Counted from the stretch's first letter, positions 53,590-64,000 are shown. The stretch is DNA of 64,000 bases from Tepidisphaeraceae bacterium (GCA_965247815.1 CBDFHW010000025.1:89058-153057); one strand, 5' to 3'. Notes: generated by a model from the sequence alone, not told the origin. A program made the numbers and translations.

Positions 53590-56500
53590 TCAATGAAAAT
53601 CGCGCGACCCCACACCGCCGTCCGAAATCAGATGGCTCAGGTCCGTCATCCGCATCACCATCACGTGAACGACCTTGTCCTGTCGTTCGACGTACCCCTC
53701 GGCCTGCACGAGCGTCGAATGTCTCGCGGCCTTTCGGTACCGATCGAACACCACCGGGCGGATGATCAGGTTCGCGATCCCCGATTCGTCTTCCAACGTC
53801 TCGAACACGATGCCGGACGCCGTCCCGGGCCGCTGACGGATCAGCACCAGCCCGGCGACACGGACCCATTTGCCGTGGGTCATGGTTGATAAATCCGCCG
53901 CCGGTGTGACGCGCATCTGCTTTAACTGCTGGCGGATCAACGCGACCGGGTGCCGCTTCAGCGACAGCCCCGCCGTGCGGTAATCGATCGTGACCTCCTG
54001 TGACATCGGCATCGTCGGCAGCGATACCCCGACCTCGGGCGCGGTGTCCTCGGTCAACCAGTCGAACAAAGGCATCGGTTCGCTGTGACATTTCATCACG
54101 TCCCACAACGCCTGCCTGCGGGACAACCCGAGCGAGCCGAAACCGTCGGCCTCGGCCAACGTCCGCAGCGCGTGTGGTGGCAAACCCGTCCGTCGGGCGA
54201 ACTGGTCGACGGACGTAAACGGGCCTCGTGTTCTAACTTCGATAACGCGGTCGGCGTGCGCCCGCCGTAGCCCCCGCACGCGGTTGAAACCGAGCTGCAC
54301 GACCGGCCCGCCGTGCCCCCAGTCCCAGGTGCGGCCGAAATCCGCGACGATCTCCGAATCACCGTGTGAATCATTTTCCGAAGATTCGGCTGTGACCAAA
54401 TCATTCTCGTCCAGTTCATAGCTGTGACCCCGAACACCAAGTGCATGCAGCGTGCATTCCCAACTGCTCTGATTCACGTCGACCGCCAGCACGATCACGC
54501 CGTGCGCCTGCGCGTCGCGGACGATCTGCGCCGGCGCGTAGAACCCCATCGGCTGGCTGTTCAGCAAACCGCAGCAGAAGACCGCCGGGTGGTGCCGTTT
54601 GATCCAGCAGGAGACATAAACCAGCAGCGCGAAACTGGCGGAATGACTTTCGGGGAAGCCGTATTCGCCGAACCCTTTGAGCATGTTGAAACATTGGTCC
54701 GCATATTCCGGCGTGTACCGCTTGGCGAGCATGCCGGCCAGGATCTTCTTGCGGAATTCCTCGACCGCGCCCCCGCGCTTCCACGCCGCCATCGCGCGCC
54801 GGAACCGGTCCGCCTCGTCCCCGGAAAACCCCGCCCCCTTCATCGCGATCTGCATCGCCTGTTCCTGAAACAACGGCACGCCCAGCGTCCGCTTCAGCAC
54901 CTCTTCCAGTTCCGCGCTCGGGTACACGACCGGTTCCAGCCCCCGCCGGCGGCGCAAATACGGGTGCACCATGTCCCCCTGGATCGGGCCCGGGCGCACG
55001 ATCGCGACTTCAATTACAAGGTCGTAAAACGTCCGGGGTCGCAGCCGGGGCAGCATCGTCATCTGCGCCCGCGATTCGATCTGGAACACCCCGACCGTGT
55101 CGGCGTCACAGATCATGTCGTAAACCAACTGGTCTTCCTGCGGGATCGTGTGCATCGCCAGCGGCGGGGTGCTCGGGTAAACCTGGTTGATCATCGTCAC
55201 GCACTTGGCGATGCACGTCAGCATCCCCAGCGCGAGCAGGTCGACTTTGAGAATTTTTAAATCGTCGATGTCCTGCTTGTCCCATTCGATGACGGTGCGG
55301 TCGGCCATCACGGCGTTTTCCACCGGCACCATCTCGCACAGCAGCCCGCTGGTCATGACCATCCCGCCGACGTGTTGACCCAGGTGCCGTGGGAACCCCA
55401 GCAACTGTTCGGACAAGTCGACGATCGTCCGCACCGTGCGGTCGTCGGGGTCGAGCCCGACCTCGGTCAACTTCTCCGGTGTCAGCGTGCCGCGGTCCCA
55501 CCAGTCGAGCCGCTTGGCCATCTGCTCGATCGTGTCCAGGCCGAGCCCCATCACTTTCCCCACGTCGCGCACGGCCGAGCGCCCGCGATACGTAATCACC
55601 TCGGCCGTCATCCCCGCCCGGTCCCGGCCGTATTTTTCGTACACATACTGAATCACTTCTTCGCGGCGTTCGTGCTCGAAATCGACGTCAATGTCCGGCG
55701 GTTCGTTCCGGGCCGCACTGACGAACCGTTCGAACAGGACGTTGATCTGGTCCGGGTTTACCGACGTGACGCCGATGCAATAACAGACCGCGCTATTGGC
55801 GGCCGACCCCCGGCCCTGGCACAAAATGTCGCGCGACCGCGCGAACCGGACGATGTCCTGCACGGTCAAAAAATACGCCTCGATCTGCAACTCGCCGATC
55901 AGTTTCAATTCCCGCTCGATCAGCGTTTTGACTTTCGGCGGAATTCCCTGCGGGTATCGCCCGGCCGCCCCTTCCCAGGCGAGCTCGGTCAGGTATTGCA
56001 GCTGCGTCTTCCCCGGTGAAGTCAGCTCGTGCGGGTATTCGTATTTCAGCTGGTCGAGATTGAATTGACATTGCTCGGCGATATCGAGCCCGCGCTGGAT
56101 GGCTGGCAAATAATCATCGAACAGCACGTGCATCTGCAGCGGCAATTTGAGATACCGTTCGCCATTTTGGAACAATCGGTATCCCGCCTCGTGGATCGTG
56201 CAGCCGTGCCGGACGCACGTCAGCACGTCCTGCAACCGCCGGCGGTCGGGGTGGTGAAAGTGCACGTCATTAGTCGCCAGCATCGGCACGCCGAACGCCC
56301 GGCTCAGCCAGTTAAGGTTCGACAACCGGGTCTGGTTGTCACTTTCATATACACACGACGCCGCGATCGACAACGATTTTCCGAACACGTCTTTCAACTG
56401 CCCCAGGTCCCGGGCGAACGTTTCCGGCACCGGGTCGGGCGGGACCACCGCAACGAGCAGGCCTTTGCCGTGATCGAACAGGTCGTGGATAGATAGATCG

Positions 56501-56883
56501 CATTCACCTTTGATCGTCCGCCGTTTGCCCAGCGTGAGCAGCTGGCACAGTCGCGCGTACGCCGCCCGGTCGGTCGGCCAGACCAATACATCAGGGTGAT
56601 TCGCCAGCACGAGCCGGGCGCCGACCACCAGTTTCAGCCCGACCTCTTTCGCCTTCACGTGCATGCGGACGATGCCGGCTACTGAATTGATATCGGTGAT
56701 GCCGATCGCGCGGTAACCCAGGTGGGCCGCCTGGATCACCAGTTCGTCCGGGTGCGACGCGCCACGCAGGAACGAAAAATTGGTCGTCACCGCCAGCTCG
56801 GCGTACTCGTACGGGCAGGCCCGCACCGTGATGTTCGACGGGGCCGCGGCGTCACGAAGTTTTGGATTAGGATGTTCGGGCAT
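53590..56883 (-). CDS. dnaE2: Error-prone DNA polymerase III alpha-like, DnaE2 (ImuC)
   Basis: 1097 aa. N-terminal PHP domain (AELAVTTNFSFLRGASHPDEL) and Pol III alpha core. Located downstream of imuA-imuB. Confidence 0.9.
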   Translation of the reverse strand: MPEHPNPKLRDAAAPSNITVRACPYEYAELAVTTNFSFLRGASHPDELVIQAAHLGYRAIGITDINSVAGIVRMHVKAKEVGLKLVVGARLVLANHPDVLVWPTDRAAYARLCQLLTLGKRRTIKGECDLSIHDLFDHGKGLLVAVVPPDPVPETFARDLGQLKDVFGKSLSIAASCVYESDNQTRLSNLNWLSRAFGVPMLATNDVHFHHPDRRRLQDVLTCVRHGCTIHEAGYRLFQNGERYLKLPLQMHVLFDDYLPAIQRGLDIAEQCQFNLDQLKYEYPHELTSPGKTQLQYLTELAWEGAAGRYPQGIPPKVKTLIERELKLIGELQIEAYFLTVQDIVRFARSRDILCQGRGSAANSAVCYCIGVTSVNPDQINVLFERFVSAARNEPPDIDVDFEHERREEVIQYVYEKYGRDRAGMTAEVITYRGRSAVRDVGKVMGLGLDTIEQMAKRLDWWDRGTLTPEKLTEVGLDPDDRTVRTIVDLSEQLLGFPRHLGQHVGGMVMTSGLLCEMVPVENAVMADRTVIEWDKQDIDDLKILKVDLLALGMLTCIAKCVTMINQVYPSTPPLAMHTIPQEDQLVYDMICDADTVGVFQIESRAQMTMLPRLRPRTFYDLVIEVAIVRPGPIQGDMVHPYLRRRRGLEPVVYPSAELEEVLKRTLGVPLFQEQAMQIAMKGAGFSGDEADRFRRAMAAWKRGGAVEEFRKKILAGMLAKRYTPEYADQCFNMLKGFGEYGFPESHSASFALLVYVSCWIKRHHPAVFCCGLLNSQPMGFYAPAQIVRDAQAHGVIVLAVDVNQSSWECTLHALGVRGHSYELDENDLVTAESSENDSHGDSEIVADFGRTWDWGHGGPVVQLGFNRVRGLRRAHADRVIEVRTRGPFTSVDQFARRTGLPPHALRTLAEADGFGSLGLSRRQALWDVMKCHSEPMPLFDWLTEDTAPEVGVSLPTMPMSQEVTIDYRTAGLSLKRHPVALIRQQLKQMRVTPAADLSTMTHGKWVRVAGLVLIRQRPGTASGIVFETLEDESGIANLIIRPVVFDRYRKAARHSTLVQAEGYVERQDKVVHVMVMRMTDLSHLISDGGVGSRDFH

Positions 56884-56934
56884 AGCGCACGGGTCGGTGT
56901 CTCACGGTGTGACGATGTCACGGTGTCGCGCGGG

Positions 56935-58635
56935 TCAACATTTTCCGTGCAGGTACCACTTCCGCGTCTCGTCCACCTGGAACAGCCAGAACCGCTGCCC
57001 CGACTGGTCTTCGACGTCGAAATAGTCCCGCGTTTTATTCCGGCCCTCCCACCACGACCCGGTGATCCGTTCCGGCCCGTTGCGGTGAACCAGGTTGAAC
57101 GCCTCGCCGGCGTGGGTGAACGAAATCGGCAGGTCTTCGCCCAGTTCGTTGGACATCATCGCGCACCCGATTTCGATCGGCTCGGGCAACAGGTGCAGCG
57201 GCCGCGATTTGATCTCCCTGTGGGTTGATTCGACCGGCGTCGGGGGGACCAATTTGAATGCCGGGTTGGACACCGGCAATAGCGAGCTGGTTTGCGCCGT
57301 CGCCTGCCGTGGTTTTTTCTTCTGTACTGCCGGCCGTTTGTGCGTCGCGAAGCTGACCGCCTTTTCCGGCAGATGCGATTCCACCGGGGTCGGGAACGCC
57401 ACCGCCGCTTCCCCGAGCCGCACCCGAAGCCGTTCGATCAGGTAATCGATTTCCCCCTCGGCCAGCTGCGCTTCGCGGTCCAGCAGGTGCAGTTGCTCGA
57501 GCGTCAGCCGTTCGAACACCGGCACCGAAAGCCGAAGACCGGCAAACCCGTCGTTGCCGCATTTCACCGTCTCGGTCGCACACCGCAGCAGGTTCCAAAG
57601 GCCCGTCAGGTCGACGGTGGGGCGCGACAGCTGAATCGTTTTCGTCACCGGCGGCAGACCATTCAGAAGAAACTCGGCCACCAGCGTCCGGGCCCCGCAC
57701 CCCCGCTGATGAAGCTCGTGCAGAACGTCTTTCAGCAGATGTTTGCACGCCTGCCAGAGATCGGTCAGCGAATCGACACCCCCTTCGAATTCCATCCCGG
57801 CAACGACCGGTTGAAAATGCGCGATCGGCAACAACGGTTCGGGCGTCCGCCCCAGCGCCTGGTCCAATCGTTTCAACACCGTCGTGCCGAACCGCGCGGG
57901 CAGCGTTTCGCGGGGCAATCGCACCAGTTGCCCGATGGTTTCAATGCCCAGTGAATGAAAAGTCCGCACGAGATCGTTACCCAACCGCAGAAAAGAAACC
58001 GGCAACGGCGCGAGCGCGGCGGGAAGCTGATCAAGATCGAAAATACGCGCGCCCCGAGATCCCGAAGAACTCTCCGAGCGATGTTGCGCCCGGCTCTTTC
58101 CCGGATCAGAAGGTCGTGACGCCAGCGCCCACGCCGCACCGGGCGTCGGCGCGATCGCGATGCCGTGACGCAGTTTCAACCGGCTGAGCGATTCGGTCGC
58201 CAGCCCCAGCAACCGGTCCATGCCCGAAAAAAGCCGTTCGCTGCCGGTCACGTCCAGGAACAAAGCATCCGGCGGTTCGACCGCAACCACCGGGCTGAAT
58301 CGCACCATCCACCGCGCCAACGCCTGCAGCGCCTGCAGATCTTTATCGGGCCGATGATCCAGATGCGCGAGCCCCGTACACAACGCCCGAGCCTCGGCCA
58401 GCGACATGCCCGGGACCACCCCCGCGGCCGTCGCGTTCGCACAAGCAAACGTCACCAATTGCCGCGCCGCCACCGTCCGAATCAACACCAAGGACGGACC
58501 CGATATCGAACCAACAGACCCCGAGGTCTTCAGACTTCTTTCGGATTTCGGATTTCGGATTTCGGATTTACAACTAGCCTGTCGCTGTTTTCGGTTGACC
58601 CGGTCGATGGGCCATTGGTTCAACCGCACGCACAT
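56935..58635 (-). CDS. imuB: ImuB, Y-family polymerase-like mutasome component
   Basis: ImuB-type N-terminus (MCVRLNQWPIDRV ... VPGMSLAEARALC). Sits between imuA and dnaE2. The start overlaps the imuA 3' end. Confidence 0.75.
   Translation of the reverse strand: MCVRLNQWPIDRVNRKQRQASCKSEIRNPKSERSLKTSGSVGSISGPSLVLIRTVAARQLVTFACANATAAGVVPGMSLAEARALCTGLAHLDHRPDKDLQALQALARWMVRFSPVVAVEPPDALFLDVTGSERLFSGMDRLLGLATESLSRLKLRHGIAIAPTPGAAWALASRPSDPGKSRAQHRSESSSGSRGARIFDLDQLPAALAPLPVSFLRLGNDLVRTFHSLGIETIGQLVRLPRETLPARFGTTVLKRLDQALGRTPEPLLPIAHFQPVVAGMEFEGGVDSLTDLWQACKHLLKDVLHELHQRGCGARTLVAEFLLNGLPPVTKTIQLSRPTVDLTGLWNLLRCATETVKCGNDGFAGLRLSVPVFERLTLEQLHLLDREAQLAEGEIDYLIERLRVRLGEAAVAFPTPVESHLPEKAVSFATHKRPAVQKKKPRQATAQTSSLLPVSNPAFKLVPPTPVESTHREIKSRPLHLLPEPIEIGCAMMSNELGEDLPISFTHAGEAFNLVHRNGPERITGSWWEGRNKTRDYFDVEDQSGQRFWLFQVDETRKWYLHGKC
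58541..58568. repeat. Heptanucleotide microsatellite (TCGGATT)x4 in the imuA/imuB junction
   Basis: Four perfect tandem copies at 58541-58568, 5 nt from the imuA stop (58574-58576) and inside the 5' coding region of imuB (encodes KSEIRNPKSE). Confidence 0.9.
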
Positions 58636-59314
58636 GATTTGTCTCACGGCAGACCTCCAGAAGAACGTTTTTCCCCACACGTCCTCCGTGACCGTGAATC
58701 AATTCCACCGACACCCGCTGGAGCATCCGCTCCCCGCGGGCCGGGGTTACTTTCCATCGCGTGGCGGCGGCGTAGGGCCACGCGACGGCCTCCGCCGGGC
58801 GCAGCAACACACCGATCCCGCCCCCGCGCTCGGCCGCCAACTGCAACCGCCTCGCCTGCACCCGCGTCAACCGGCCCGCCGGGGTAATGCACGCGGCCAC
58901 GCCCCGGCACCGAAGACACTCGGTCACCGCCCAGAGCCCTTCCGCCATCGTCGCCGGCCGCAACACCAGCAGGCGTTCCATCGGGATGCCCAGCGCCAAT
59001 AACGCCGGCGGATACAGGTCCCGGTCGAAATCGCACCAGACGATCATGCCAACCCGCGACTCCGACTGAATCGCCGATCGCGCCAGCAAGGCAGGCAACA
59101 AGAACGGCATCCGCGCCGCCTGCGATTTCACACCGCCTACGCCGTTGAGCACCTCGTGCACGGCCCCGCGGACGAACGCCCCCTCGGGCAACATCTCGTC
59201 CAAAGCCGACAACCCGGTAACCAGCTTCCGCGACCCGCCACCCGCGCGACCGGGCAAATGCCCGAGCCCGGGCAGCGTCCGCAACAACCCACCGACAGAC
59301 GTAATGACATGCAC
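58574..59314 (-). CDS. imuA: ImuA (SulA/RecA-like) mutasome component
   Basis: RecA-fold-like P-loop region. First gene of the imuA-imuB-dnaE2 cassette. GTG start at 59314. Confidence 0.7.
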   Translation of the reverse strand: MHVITSVGGLLRTLPGLGHLPGRAGGGSRKLVTGLSALDEMLPEGAFVRGAVHEVLNGVGGVKSQAARMPFLLPALLARSAIQSESRVGMIVWCDFDRDLYPPALLALGIPMERLLVLRPATMAEGLWAVTECLRCRGVAACITPAGRLTRVQARRLQLAAERGGGIGVLLRPAEAVAWPYAAATRWKVTPARGERMLQRVSVELIHGHGGRVGKNVLLEVCRETNHVRAVEPMAHRPGQPKTATG

Positions 59315-59683: not shown

Positions 59684-60768
59684 ATGAGCTATCAGACAAT
59701 TGTGGCTATCGATCTGGGCAAGTTCAAGTCTGTTTTGTGCGTGATGGACGTCGCCACCCGGACGCATCGGTTTACCACCATCGAGTCTTCGCCGACCGCG
59801 ATCCGCGATGCGATTGCTCAGCAGGTCTCGACCGATCCGGCTTTGACCCTGGTGGTCTTTGAGACCTGCGACACCTGCGGCTGGGTGCATGATCAACTCG
59901 CGCCCCTGGGCGTGAAGATCACCATCGTCAACGCCAACGATGAACGCTGGCGCTGGCAGCGGGTGAAGCGAAAGACCGATCAGGATGATGCACTGAAAAT
60001 GGCCAGGCTGGCGCTATTGGATCAATTGCCCACGGTACATCTGCCCGATCCACAGCAGCGGCAGAGACGGCGGTTGATGATTCACCGGCGATCAATCGTG
60101 AGCCGGCGAACGCAGTGCCGCAACGCCATTCGCTCCATTTTCAGCCATCCTTCGACTTCGCTCAGGAGGGTATCGCGCTGGCCAGAGGACAAAAGCAGTG
60201 GACACGCGCCGGCCTAGAGCAACTGCAAAGCCATGCCGCCCCGATCGAGAACTGCGACGTGGACGATCTGTGGAAGGGAAGGCTCAACAGCGAACTGCTG
60301 CTGATGGCGTCGATCAACCAGCAGCTCAAAGCGCTCGATGCCAAGCTGGACGAACTGGCCGACCCGCGCATGAAACTATTGCAGAGCCTGAAGGGCGTTG
60401 GCCCGCGCACCGCAGAGACAGTGGTGCTGTACATCGATGATCCCAAACGATTCAAAACCGGCGAAGAACTGGCCAGCTACGCCGGTCTGGTGCCCAAGCA
60501 ACTGCAAAGCGGTGAAATGAACCGCATGGGCCACATCACCCATCGCGGGCCGGGTCTCTTGCGTGCGATGCTGGTCGAGTCGGCCTGGACAATCTATCGC
60601 CACAACCCCTGGGCACAGGCGTTTGTGAACAAGATCAGCCACGGATCAAAGGCCAGGCGAAAGCTGGCGATCGTCGCGCTGGCCAAAAAGGTGCTGATCA
60701 TTTTGTGGGGCATGCTCAAGAGCAATACGCCGTTCCGACAACCGTCGTCTGTCGCGCTGGTGAGTTGA
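59684..60768 (+). mobile_element. IS110-family transposase gene, disrupted by a frameshift (frames 59684..60217 and 60115..60768)
   Basis: N-terminal DEDD/RuvC-like part (IVAIDLGKFKS ... VFETCDTCGW) in one frame. C-terminal part (GVGPRTAETVVLYIDDPKRF ... YAGLVPKQLQSGE) in another. The shift is near a TTTT run around 60140-60150. Confidence 0.8.
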
Positions 60769-61417: not shown

Positions 61418-61600
61418 GTGCCGGATAACTACTATTCTGCTGCGCACCGCCATAAAAGCCGCGTTTGGCGGTGATCGGTGCTCGTTCCCTAAACTACTTT
61501 CACAGCAACCGGGGGGAAGATTAAGGGGACGTAGTTTGGGCTTCCCCACTAAGCACGGGCGCGGCAGAGGGCAGAGTAGAATCTGTCTGAAGGAGTGTCC

Positions 61601-61882
61601 ATGGCACGAAGAAAGTACACGCGGGAGTTCAAGATTTCAGCAGTCAAGCTGGTCAATCAACAGGGGTATTCAGTGGTTGACGCGGCCAAGAGCCTGGGCG
61701 TCGATCCCAACAGCGTTCGGGGGTGGGTCGGCAAGTTTGGAGCCGAGGCCGGCTTGGCGCCGACTGGCGACGGAGCGATGGCGGCAGAGCTGCGGCGGCT
61801 GCGCAAGGAGAACGCCCGGCTTTTGATGGAGCGCGAGATTTTAAAAAAAGCAGCTCAGTTCTTCGCAAAGGAGCAGCTGTGA
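61601..61882 (+). CDS. IS3 OrfA (helix-turn-helix transposase N-terminal part)
   Basis: MARRKYTREFKISAVKLV... ending at the AAAAAAAG slippery run (61844-61851), where a -1 frameshift would fuse it to orfB. Confidence 0.85.
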   Translation: MARRKYTREFKISAVKLVNQQGYSVVDAAKSLGVDPNSVRGWVGKFGAEAGLAPTGDGAMAAELRRLRKENARLLMEREILKKAAQFFAKEQL

Positions 61883-62739
61883 AGTTTGCCTTCATCGAAG
61901 AACACCTCCGTGACTTTCCGGTTGAGGTTTCGTGCCAGGTGCTGGATGTCAGCCGCTCGGGTTACTACGACTGGATCAACCGGCCTGCGAGCGAGCGGTA
62001 CAAACGCCGGGAGGAACTGACGGCCAAGGTCAGAACCGCCGCCGTGGAAGGGCGCGGCGTCTACGGCAGCCCGCGGATCTATAAAGCCCTGGTGGCCCGG
62101 GGCGAAAGCGTGTGTGAAAACACGGTGGCAAAAGTGATGAAAGCGGCCGGAATCCGGGCGAAACAAAAGAAAAAATTCGTGCCGACCACCACCGACAGCG
62201 ACCACCCCAACCCGGTGGCCGGCAACGTGCTGGACCGGCAGTTCGCCGCCGAACTCCCGAACCAGAAATGGGCGGTGGACATCACTTACATTCCGACCGA
62301 CCAGGGATGGATGTACCTGGCGGGGGTGATTGATTTGTGCAGCCGGATGATCGTCGGCTGGTCGATGGCGGATCACATGCAAACCGATCTGGTGAGTGAT
62401 GCGCTGCAGATGGCGATCGCGCGAAGAAGCCCCGAGAAAGGCCTGCTGCACCACAGCGACCGCGGCGTTCAATACGCGAGTGATAATTACCAGCAGCTGC
62501 TGGAATCGCATGAAATGAACCAGAGCATGAGCGGCAAGGGAGACTGCTGGGACAACGCCGTAATGGAAAGCTTCTGGTCCACGCTCAAGACCGAGTTGGT
62601 GCATCACCAGAAGTTCGCCACACATGACCAGGCCCGGGCGTCGATCTTTGAGTACATCGAGGTGTTTTATAATCGCAGACGTCTGCACAGTTCGTTAGGC
62701 TATGTCAGCCCCGAGATGTTCGAGGCAAGCCTGAATTAG
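61879..62739 (+). CDS. IS3 OrfB (DDE integrase-core / rve domain)
   Basis: -1 frame relative to orfA. DDE motifs (WAVDITYI ... HHSDRGVQY ... ESFWSTLKTE). The frame is open from 61723. Confidence 0.85.
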   Translation: MKFAFIEEHLRDFPVEVSCQVLDVSRSGYYDWINRPASERYKRREELTAKVRTAAVEGRGVYGSPRIYKALVARGESVCENTVAKVMKAAGIRAKQKKKFVPTTTDSDHPNPVAGNVLDRQFAAELPNQKWAVDITYIPTDQGWMYLAGVIDLCSRMIVGWSMADHMQTDLVSDALQMAIARRSPEKGLLHHSDRGVQYASDNYQQLLESHEMNQSMSGKGDCWDNAVMESFWSTLKTELVHHQKFATHDQARASIFEYIEVFYNRRRLHSSLGYVSPEMFEASLN

Positions 62740-63391
62740 CCCTCTGCAGCGCCCGTGCTTAGTGGGGAAGCCCAGAAGGCCGGGTGACACTTCTATTTCG
62801 GCTAAGAGGGTGACATTTCTACTTCTGTACAACAACGGCCCAATATACGTTTAGGAAACACGAACTGCGGCAGATTGGCCTCGGGCGTTTCTCTCACCAG
62901 ACGCCGCGTTGATCGGAGTTTAGAACATCGCGAGCAGACGCTTAACTAGTTCAAATCCAGTGCGTAACTCAATCCGAGTGACCTGTCGTTGGCAGATTCG
63001 GACCGAAGTCTCTTTGACACCAAATGTTAAACGAGCTTGTCGGTTATCCGCTGACCTTGGCTCCGGATCCGGAGAGTTCTGCGGCAGGTGAGTTTCAATT
63101 CACAATATCAAATTTTTCACCGGTCTACGTCAGGAGCTACGTGCTTTGACTTCGGAGAATTACGTCGATTCGTGCAGGTGGTGTACCACCGCGGCCGGCA
63201 CCACGAGATGTGGGAAAACCATCAGAATTGGCAAGTTAAAGTAAGCAGATTGGCGACCCAATTTCGACCTCGTTGCGGCCTTTCGGCGGTTCCATATGCA
63301 ACATCCAAACCGATTGTAAAAGTGATGTAAATAACTATTATATATGTGCTTATGTGCATTCGATTATTTGGACTCAAGATCAAAGCTACGA

Positions 63392-63420
63392 TTGACACGT
63401 TTTCTATATCCAGTTATAGT
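63392..63420 (+). promoter_or_regulatory. Near-consensus sigma70-type promoter TTGACA-17nt-TATAGT
   Basis: TTGACA at 63392-63397, a 17-nt spacer, and TATAGT at 63415-63420. Located in AT-rich sequence. Confidence 0.55.
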
Positions 63421-63426
63421 TCGAGA

Positions 63427-63553
63427 CGTCGCAGAGAGGCTTAAAATCGATCACCGAGGAGTCTCTGCGAGCTCTCAGGACAAGTTAAGCGGCTTTCGAG
63501 CCGTGGCGCACTTCCGGAGGTGGTAGGAGCCACCCCTCCGGAAGTTCTTTTTT
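63427..63553 (+). ncRNA. Candidate small RNA or 5' leader (about 125 nt) with two internal hairpins and an intrinsic terminator
   Basis: No ATG in the transcript. Hairpins cgcagaga...tctctgcg (63430-63468) and cggct-ttcg-agccg (63490-63503). Terminator cttccggagg...cctccggaag (63511-63544) followed by TTCTTTTTT. Confidence 0.45.
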
Positions 63554-63661
63554 GCGCTTCACCTTATTTTCCCTTGCCCACATTTGGGGCGCAGTTTCAC
63601 TGACCAATCTGTCTACAACTATTGTCTTGACCGCATTACAGTCGGGACTGATAATTAGGCG

Positions 63662-64000
63662 ATGGCGAAATTCAGGCTCGACGTCATCGCCGATCTCGCA
63701 CGCCAGCTAACATTCACCCCGCTTTCAACCCGATTCGGTCAGACTACCGCCGCCGAAAAGCTGCTCCACGATCTTGATCCGCACACCGCCTATCCGCTGG
63801 ACTACATCATCTACCGCATTACCGGCTACCAGCCGAAGGTCACCGCGGAGCAAGATCTTCTGACCGGGCTGGCACTTCAACACGACCTCGGGCTGCTGAT
63901 CGAACTCGTGAGCGACACGCTCAAGCTCGAGGCGGCTGCCATGAGCGAGCCGATTCTGTCGATCGGCGACGTAACCCTGCGTTTCGAGGTCACGAGTAAA
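63662..64000 (+). CDS. Hypothetical protein, 5' partial (continues beyond the window end)
   Basis: ATG at 63662, open to the window end (113 codons). Not in the ORF track because no stop lies inside the window. Confidence 0.4.
   Translation, partial: MAKFRLDVIADLARQLTFTPLSTRFGQTTAAEKLLHDLDPHTAYPLDYIIYRITGYQPKVTAEQDLLTGLALQHDLGLLIELVSDTLKLEAAAMSEPILSIGDVTLRFEVTSK

Follow-up and report, generated by a model that had tools for sequence, protein, structure and literature searches.

The 64,000-nucleotide (nt) stretch of Tepidisphaeraceae bacterium DNA analysed here in full (GCA_965247815.1, CBDFHW010000025.1:89058-153057), referred to below as the window, carries near its right end a compact unit composed of a promoter, a short region of predicted hairpins and a terminator, followed by the 5' part of a sigma-70-family gene. 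The unit spans positions 63392 to 63553 on the plus strand and is probably a gene transcribed on its own, whose product is a non-coding RNA about 125 nt long from a family in the Tepidisphaerales (Phycisphaerae, Planctomycetota) that we have not found described. This reading is built on sequence comparisons and predicted folds, and the parts of the unit are as follows, with the hairpins numbered from the 5' end.

63310 to 63391, plus strand: AT-rich stretch 5' of the -35 box, in the region that, in relatives, also serves a divergent promoter
63392 to 63420, plus strand: sigma-70-type promoter, TTGACA (63392-63397), a 17-nt spacer and TATAGT (63415-63420), matching the consensus at 11 of 12 positions
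63421 to 63426, plus strand: GC-rich discriminator TCGAGA; given typical -10 spacing, transcription would start at about 63427
63429 to 63470, plus strand: H1, the 5' hairpin, with arms CGCAGAGAG and CUCUCUGCG (predicted fold)
63471 to 63488, plus strand: single-stranded linker, partly conserved and ending in GUUAA (alignment)
63489 to 63504, plus strand: H2, GCGGCU-UUCG-AGCCGU (predicted fold and alignment)
63505 to 63509, plus strand: conserved unpaired linker GGCGC (alignment)
63510 to 63545, plus strand: H3, the terminator hairpin, whose GC-rich stem of 14 base pairs (bp) carries a CC bulge and is capped by the loop (A)(C/U)AGGAG
63546 to 63553, plus strand: U tract UCUUUUUU, the putative 3' end of the RNA

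The promoter is the better of two sites that match the consensus at 10 or more of 12 positions on either strand of the whole window, the other lying at 63627-63655. An earlier note on this DNA, which had pointed to TTGACA-17-TATAGT and called such promoters uncommon in this genome, was right on both counts. It had also described an ATG-free stretch of about 125 nt with hairpins, one of them with a UUCG loop, ending in a GC-rich stem-loop and U tract, and this description holds: there is no ATG in 63427-63553, and the 14-bp stem of H3 is followed by UCUUUUUU. The 127-nt RNA is predicted to fold into three hairpins at -51 kcal/mol (z = -2.95, with one of 200 dinucleotide shuffles equalling it). 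The 3' module of H2 and H3 folds at -30.7 kcal/mol, and no competing fold of the invariant block described below is found among the lowest-energy suboptimal structures. A simple terminator scan omitted H3, which we attribute to the CC bulge, possibly outside the model used by the scan.

Eleven copies of the unit are available as DNA, the window and ten homologues from metagenomes and metagenome-assembled genomes (MAGs) of Tepidisphaerales, and five further copies are visible solely as peptides of spurious open reading frames (ORFs) that run through the RNA. They were reached by four routes. Contigs encoding close homologues of the sigma protein yielded locus L001, which matches the window at 97% identity over the promoter boxes and the RNA's 3' 76 nt, and at 65% identity in the sigma protein. 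An exact 20-mer from H2 matched metagenome contigs L008 and L009; it has no match among species-representative genomes, in which L017 differs from it by two adjacent bases (TCAG for TAAG). L017 itself was the sole find of nhmmer and a covariance model run over 80 genome loci that contain the sigma gene. Finally, a protein database was probed with a chimeric peptide assembled from six-frame translations of the conserved part, which returned eleven ORFs holding those translations, six of which gave DNA (L090 to L095). Conservation in relatives, which the earlier note had proposed as a check, is thus found, with the complete promoter-RNA-terminator unit kept in ten further loci. The distribution so far comprises Tepidisphaerales only, planctomycetes of soil and peat.

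Across the 11 copies the RNA is 103-133 nt long and contains a 52-nt block, AGCCGUGGCGCACUUCCGGAGGUGG(A)(C/U)AGGAGCCACCCCUCCGGAAGU, that is identical in all of them apart from the variable loop positions and a GC-to-AA change in the linker of L017. The H2 stem (CGGCU/AGCCG) is the same in every copy, with the closing G-U pair replaced by A-U in two, and its loop reads UUCG, UUA, UGCC, UCUU or UCUCA. The following linker is GGCGC in ten copies and GGCAA in L017; all 14 pairs of H3 are identical throughout, with differences at one or two loop positions, and each copy has a run of six to nine U residues past the stem. Variation within the 3' module is limited to loops, to linkers and to the base that precedes the U tract, and 19 of the 20 base pairs of H2 and H3 never vary.

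The 5' part is kept differently. In 10 of 11 full-length minimum-free-energy folds a hairpin lies no more than about 4 nt from the predicted 5' end, and L008 has a weak 5' structure that shifts between folds. The arms of H1 are unrelated in sequence among copies (UGCAGAGC/GCUCUGUA in L001, CGACAG/CUGUCG in L009, CGCAACCG/CGGUUGUG in L017), and H1 cannot be aligned column by column; the 5' domains have a mean z of about -1. The single-stranded linker between H1 and H2 is weakly conserved and A/U-rich in most homologues (e.g. AAAACAAUCAACAGUUUAA), and carries no invariant seed.

The promoter is conserved together with the RNA. The -35 element (G)ATTGACA and the -10 element TATAGT are kept in all 11 copies, with a variant in L092 (TATATT, 18-nt spacer), and the letters of the spacer are randomised in the alignment. 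The 130 nt 5' of the -35 box have a GC content of 39-46% in 10 of the 11 copies, compared with about 60% for the genome, and the AT-rich stretch at 63310-63391 may be an UP element; AT-richness is all that the upstream regions share, and no common sequence motif that could mark a regulator site was found 5' of the promoter in the 11 copies. In most homologues GC-rich letters follow the -10 box (e.g. CCGACG, CCGCCC and CGCCGT).

The surroundings of the 3' module have diverged widely. The sequence directly bordering the block is randomised, as is the promoter spacer; neighbouring mutT products share 39-71% amino acid (aa) identity and PyrK proteins 34-53%, one close pair excepted, and nucleotide identity over the 5' 340 nt of the sigma gene is 64-75%, falling to 44-52% at third codon positions. 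A nearby tRNA-Ala(GGC) gene is 100% identical among L001, L008 and L009. Because the flanks have diverged to this extent while the tRNA has not changed, the 3' module is conserved at the level of a tRNA. Past the U tract, GCGC (63554-63557) is kept in the five closest copies (the window, L001, L008, L009 and L095), and the sequence beyond it is diverged; these four bases might base-pair with the same four in the GGCGCA linker that precedes H3. Both are altered in L017, and the post-tract GCGC is absent from copies that lie next to pyrK.

Three further features complete the locus in the window.

63344 to 63526, plus strand: spurious 60-aa ORF across the promoter and the RNA, with no family match and a broken frame
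63627 to 63655, plus strand: the sigma gene's own promoter, TTGACC-17-GATAAT, matching the consensus at 10 of 12 positions and ending 6 nt before the ATG
63662 to 64000, plus strand: 5' part of the sigma-70-family gene, the protein matching L009 at 67% identity over 115 aa

The gene starts at 63662, 108 nt past the U tract, exactly where the earlier note had placed a partial ORF. The full-length protein of L009 has 551 aa, with an N-terminal domain, a helix-turn-helix domain and sigma regions 2 and 4, and the protein family is found in MAGs of Tepidisphaerales, Tepidisphaeraceae and Phycisphaerae, the best genome match being 69% identical, which places the source among Tepidisphaerales outside the species-representative genomes. 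Most of about 20 related loci have CTTGACC-N17-GATAAT followed after 5-6 nt by ATG or GTG, and a promoter that ends so close to the start codon implies a leaderless sigma mRNA. Since this promoter is also kept in relatives that do not have the RNA, we reject the RNA as a leader of the sigma gene. The earlier note had offered either an independent small RNA (sRNA) or a leader for that gene; recurrence of the unit in 11 loci supports the former, and the sigma gene's own promoter disposes of the latter. L010, a locus that does not have the RNA, has a near-consensus promoter (TTGACT-N17-TAGAAT) about 370 nt upstream of its sigma gene. The spacer between RNA and sigma promoter is filled by tandem or palindromic TTCGACG/TTCGAAG repeats in L001 (3895-3945) and L095.

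The gene upstream of the RNA is a divergent NUDIX/mutT gene in L008, L009, L090, L094 and L095, and a tRNA gene in L001 and L017. L092 differs in having a CsrA-family gene directly upstream on the same strand, at that locus only; its 109-aa product (1268-1597) has two CsrA-like halves and matches Pfam CsrA in two stretches at 38 bits. Downstream, the sigma gene with its own promoter follows 88-290 nt on in the window, L001, L009, L017 and L095, pyrK-(ABM)-pyrD starts 12-50 nt past the U tract in L090 to L094, and by peptide evidence also in P0084, and an unrelated Ser/Thr-rich protein is encoded in L008. No mutT, pyrK, pyrD or tRNA neighbour is present in the 64-kilobase (kb) window, where the ancestral upstream synteny has plausibly been broken by insertion sequence (IS) insertions.

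In the window the RNA is independent of the gene downstream, because the sigma gene has its own promoter, and in the pyrK-context relatives it is not. In L091 and L094 pyrK starts about 12 nt past the U tract, leaving no room for a promoter, so that the pyrK operon must be read from the RNA promoter through the terminator. We infer that in the pyrK-context genomes the RNA would also act as a 5' leader, with pyrK-pyrD depending on read-through. This arrangement invites a different view of the whole element, namely that it is a cis-acting attenuator or riboswitch in which H2, the linker and H3 bind a ligand or protein and thereby set read-through into pyrK-pyrD or the sigma gene. Besides the short distance to pyrK (12-50 nt in L090 to L094, and by inference in P0084), it would account for the invariant nucleotides inside the terminator stem, a feature that characterises aptamers embedded in terminators, for example the HMP-PP (thiS) riboswitch.

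We nonetheless consider such a cis-acting element rather unlikely. The downstream genes are of three unrelated types and are not functionally coherent (pyrK-pyrD in five or six copies, the sigma gene in five, the Ser/Thr-rich protein in one), and the sigma gene has a conserved promoter of its own, 75-290 nt on. Each locus has one copy, and upstream synteny is kept while the downstream gene type changes, a pattern typical of genes and not of elements distributed over a regulon. No alternative fold of the invariant block was found among the lowest-energy suboptimal structures, and neither PyrR attenuators (RF00515, with zero hits in the window or in the pyrK-context loci L091 to L094) nor any other Rfam cis-regulatory model matches. 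CAGAGAGGCU in H1 of the window resembles a PyrR box and was rejected as one, being kept in no homologue and giving no RF00515 hit. A conserved antiterminator was likewise considered and rejected: when folds are computed without the 3' arm, antiterminator-like pairing is suggestive individually in L009, L091 and L093, but pairing of the 5' region with the 5' arm of the terminator shows no overall excess over dinucleotide shuffles (combined z = -1.2).

Given that the downstream genes are unrelated, that the sigma gene has a promoter of its own, that synteny is gene-like with a single copy at each locus, and that no conserved antiterminator was found, the most economical reading of these sequences is that the element is a stand-alone, strongly expressed RNA whose terminator would be leaky enough to feed pyrK-pyrD where that operon abuts it. 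For this stand-alone RNA we propose the following course of events. The near-consensus sigma-70 promoter, with its AT-rich upstream region and GC-rich discriminator, would start transcription near 63427, and the invariant H3 with the U tract would end it near 63550-63553. H1, in which structure is kept and sequence is not, most likely shields the 5' end. The functional surface would be the frozen 3' module, made up of the stem of H2, the linker GGCGC, and H3, whose loop exposes AGGAG. A partner may read this folded module sequence-specifically, because both stem strands are invariant, and not merely complementary, amid saturated neutral positions; that partner is most likely a protein, in which case the RNA would act in trans as a decoy or scaffold.

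As to what the partner might be, H3 contains GGAGGUG, a perfect Shine-Dalgarno sequence, and its loop contains AGGAG; as a lead, this hints either at the ribosome or at a partner that recognises GGA or Shine-Dalgarno-like sequences. More speculative, and doubtful in our estimation, is that H2-GGCGC-H3 is something other than a common regulator or terminator, being either the RNA partner of an unrecognised housekeeping ribonucleoprotein or a terminator-embedded sensor that ties pyrimidine synthesis (pyrK-pyrD) to a signal. Under this reading, the tRNA-level invariance, the stable-RNA-like promoter and the fixed location beside tRNA and mutT genes would suit a stable RNA that is under growth-rate control and has an essential partner.

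A CsrA sponge was weighed and rejected, as the RNA carries a single invariant exposed GGA and a CsrA-like gene adjoins it in one locus, with none in the window. Beyond the H3 loop, GGA motifs are paired or occur in some copies only, and those in the 5' part are present, by eye, in about half of the copies.

A protein partner is to be set against the possibility that the RNA is a base-pairing sRNA, with the GGCGCA linker or the AGGAG loop of H3 as the seed for mRNA targets and the terminator as a chaperone-binding module. The order of parts suits this, running from a 5' hairpin through an A/U-rich single strand and an internal hairpin to a terminator that has six or more U residues, and there are unpaired conserved letters to serve as a seed (GGCGC in 10 of 11 copies, the AGGAG loop in all 11). 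These stretches span just 5-7 nt, however, and one would look for a seed in the long single-stranded linker, which is less conserved than any other part of the RNA. Nor does seed pairing account for the fixity of both strands in two stems. We prefer a protein partner on account of these frozen stems and the poorly conserved linker, and regard seed pairing as improbable.

Several points weigh against a stand-alone RNA of this kind. Its expression, its abundance and both of its ends are what we infer from the sequence. As the pairs of H2 and H3 never vary, there is no covariation in them and not one double change, and the fold rests on energy and on the location of the variation. The single invariant exposed GGA/AGGAG motif is too little for a CsrB-type sponge, and the terminator abuts pyrK in at least five relatives, which fits a cis-acting leader equally well. 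The RNA lies within 3 kb of the sigma gene in just 1 of 80 species-representative loci, pointing to a narrow or patchy distribution; the family is either narrow or mostly sited elsewhere, for example upstream of pyrK. Lastly, exact words or peptides from the block were used in part to find the homologues, so divergent members will have been missed and invariance is overstated. On this last point the two halves of the module cross-validate each other, since H3 is invariant in the five copies chosen without it (the window, L001, L008, L009 and L017) and the H2 stem in the six chosen without H2 (L090 to L095).

The block could also act as DNA, or be a mobile remnant, with the inverted repeat ACTTCCGGAGG...CCTCCGGAAGT serving as a site for a protein or for recombination, or marking a recently arrived cassette. 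Both arms are invariant, as in a palindromic protein-binding site, and IS elements lie just upstream in the window. In every copy, though, a conserved strong promoter lies 100-130 nt upstream of the block in the same orientation, and a U tract comes after the block on that strand. The block is present in a single copy in the window, the ten other loci have no adjoining IS, and the sequences on both of its borders are fully diverged, excluding recent transfer of a larger piece. It also has no match in a plasmid collection (blastn) or in viral contigs (pattern search), and we consider a role as DNA very improbable. We further rejected a bridge RNA or omega-RNA of the nearby IS110 and IS3 elements, the RNA being 0.6-2.6 kb away from them and none of the ten other loci having such a neighbour.

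The nearer of these elements, of the IS3 family, lies at 61537-62774 and ends about 620 nt before the RNA promoter. It has 36-nt terminal inverted repeats that are 97% complementary, and its genes overlap as is usual for the family (orfA, 61595-61882; orfB, 61723-62739, with an rve integrase core). An IS110-family transposase at 59684-60768 is split into two overlapping ORFs, with DEDD_Tnp_IS110 in the N-terminal and Transposase_20 in the C-terminal part, and is probably frameshifted or a pseudogene. The earlier note had called the region AT-rich and IS-flanked; its GC content is indeed 51.8% in 63001-64000 against about 60% elsewhere, and the IS elements are confirmed on the upstream side, the downstream side lying outside the window, which ends at 64000. 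Farther upstream, 53590-59314 on the minus strand encodes a dnaE2-type DNA polymerase III alpha subunit (1097 aa), an IMS/ImuB-like protein (581 aa) and a 246-aa ORF, and looks like an imuA-imuB-dnaE2 damage-inducible mutagenesis cassette.

A chance pairing of promoter and hairpin, or a gene for a small protein, is effectively refuted, as the unit is kept in 11 loci and the 60-aa ORF that can be drawn across the region (63344-63526) spans the promoter, has no match in Pfam or NCBIfam, is broken between homologues by 1-nt indels, and has all three codon positions equally invariant. In the window and L017 a 1-nt deletion brings in a stop codon, after RRW, where the others read on. The annotation of 63344-63526 as an ORF, which the earlier note had suspected of being spurious, should be corrected.

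The RNA also falls outside the known families that we searched. Rfam 15 (4227 covariance models) gives nothing on the RNA in positions 62700-64000 of the window at E up to 10; two chance hits, at 17.9 and 12.2 bits compared with gathering scores of 55 and 40, both lie off it. Seven homologous loci, searched at E up to 5, yield tRNAs and chance hits, none on the RNA, and the spacer repeats of L095 cause a false mir-5928 hit on both strands. Full-text literature searches turned up nothing on sRNAs in Tepidisphaerales, and to our knowledge almost no sRNAs have been characterised in Planctomycetota. For a phylum nearly without known sRNAs the element is a cleanly bounded candidate, with a defined promoter and terminator and a 52-nt invariant module that is directly usable as a probe, pull-down bait or search model. 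The invariance of both strands of the terminator hairpin is unusual beside neighbouring proteins at 34-71% identity, and suggests a sequence-specific partner.

Among known systems, the RNA shares with terminator-ended stand-alone sRNAs, such as the Hfq-associated enterobacterial Spot 42 and RyhB, a promoter of its own, a size of about 100-130 nt, an intergenic location and the lack of coding capacity, as well as the succession of 5' hairpin, A/U-rich single strand, internal hairpin and GC-rich terminator with at least six U residues. In sRNAs of that type the seed is most conserved and the terminator stem drifts or covaries, whereas here the single-stranded linker drifts and the terminator and the hairpin preceding it are frozen. 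The resemblance to HMP-PP/thiS and pyr attenuators lies in the invariant terminator nucleotides and, in five or six relatives, the position directly upstream of pyrK-pyrD; unlike riboswitches and PyrR attenuators, the element has incoherent downstream genes, among them a sigma gene served by a separate promoter, and neither an alternative pairing nor a covariance-model match was found. Conservation in folded hairpins rather than in a seed, combined with a strong promoter, is a property shared with CsrB/RsmY/RsmZ, GlmY/GlmZ and 6S RNA, and the GGA/AGGAG exposed in the H3 loop, together with the CsrA-family gene of L092, is reminiscent of protein-sequestering sRNAs. The length and fold differ from those of 6S RNA, and Csr/Rsm sponges carry many exposed GGA motifs in place of the single invariant one seen here; the RNA also has no Rfam match to these families. 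Having failed the tests for membership of Rfam families, for PyrR, for Csr/Rsm sponges and for an antiterminator-type attenuator, it is a new RNA family, and in its pattern of conservation it is nearer to protein-binding RNAs than to seed-type sRNAs.

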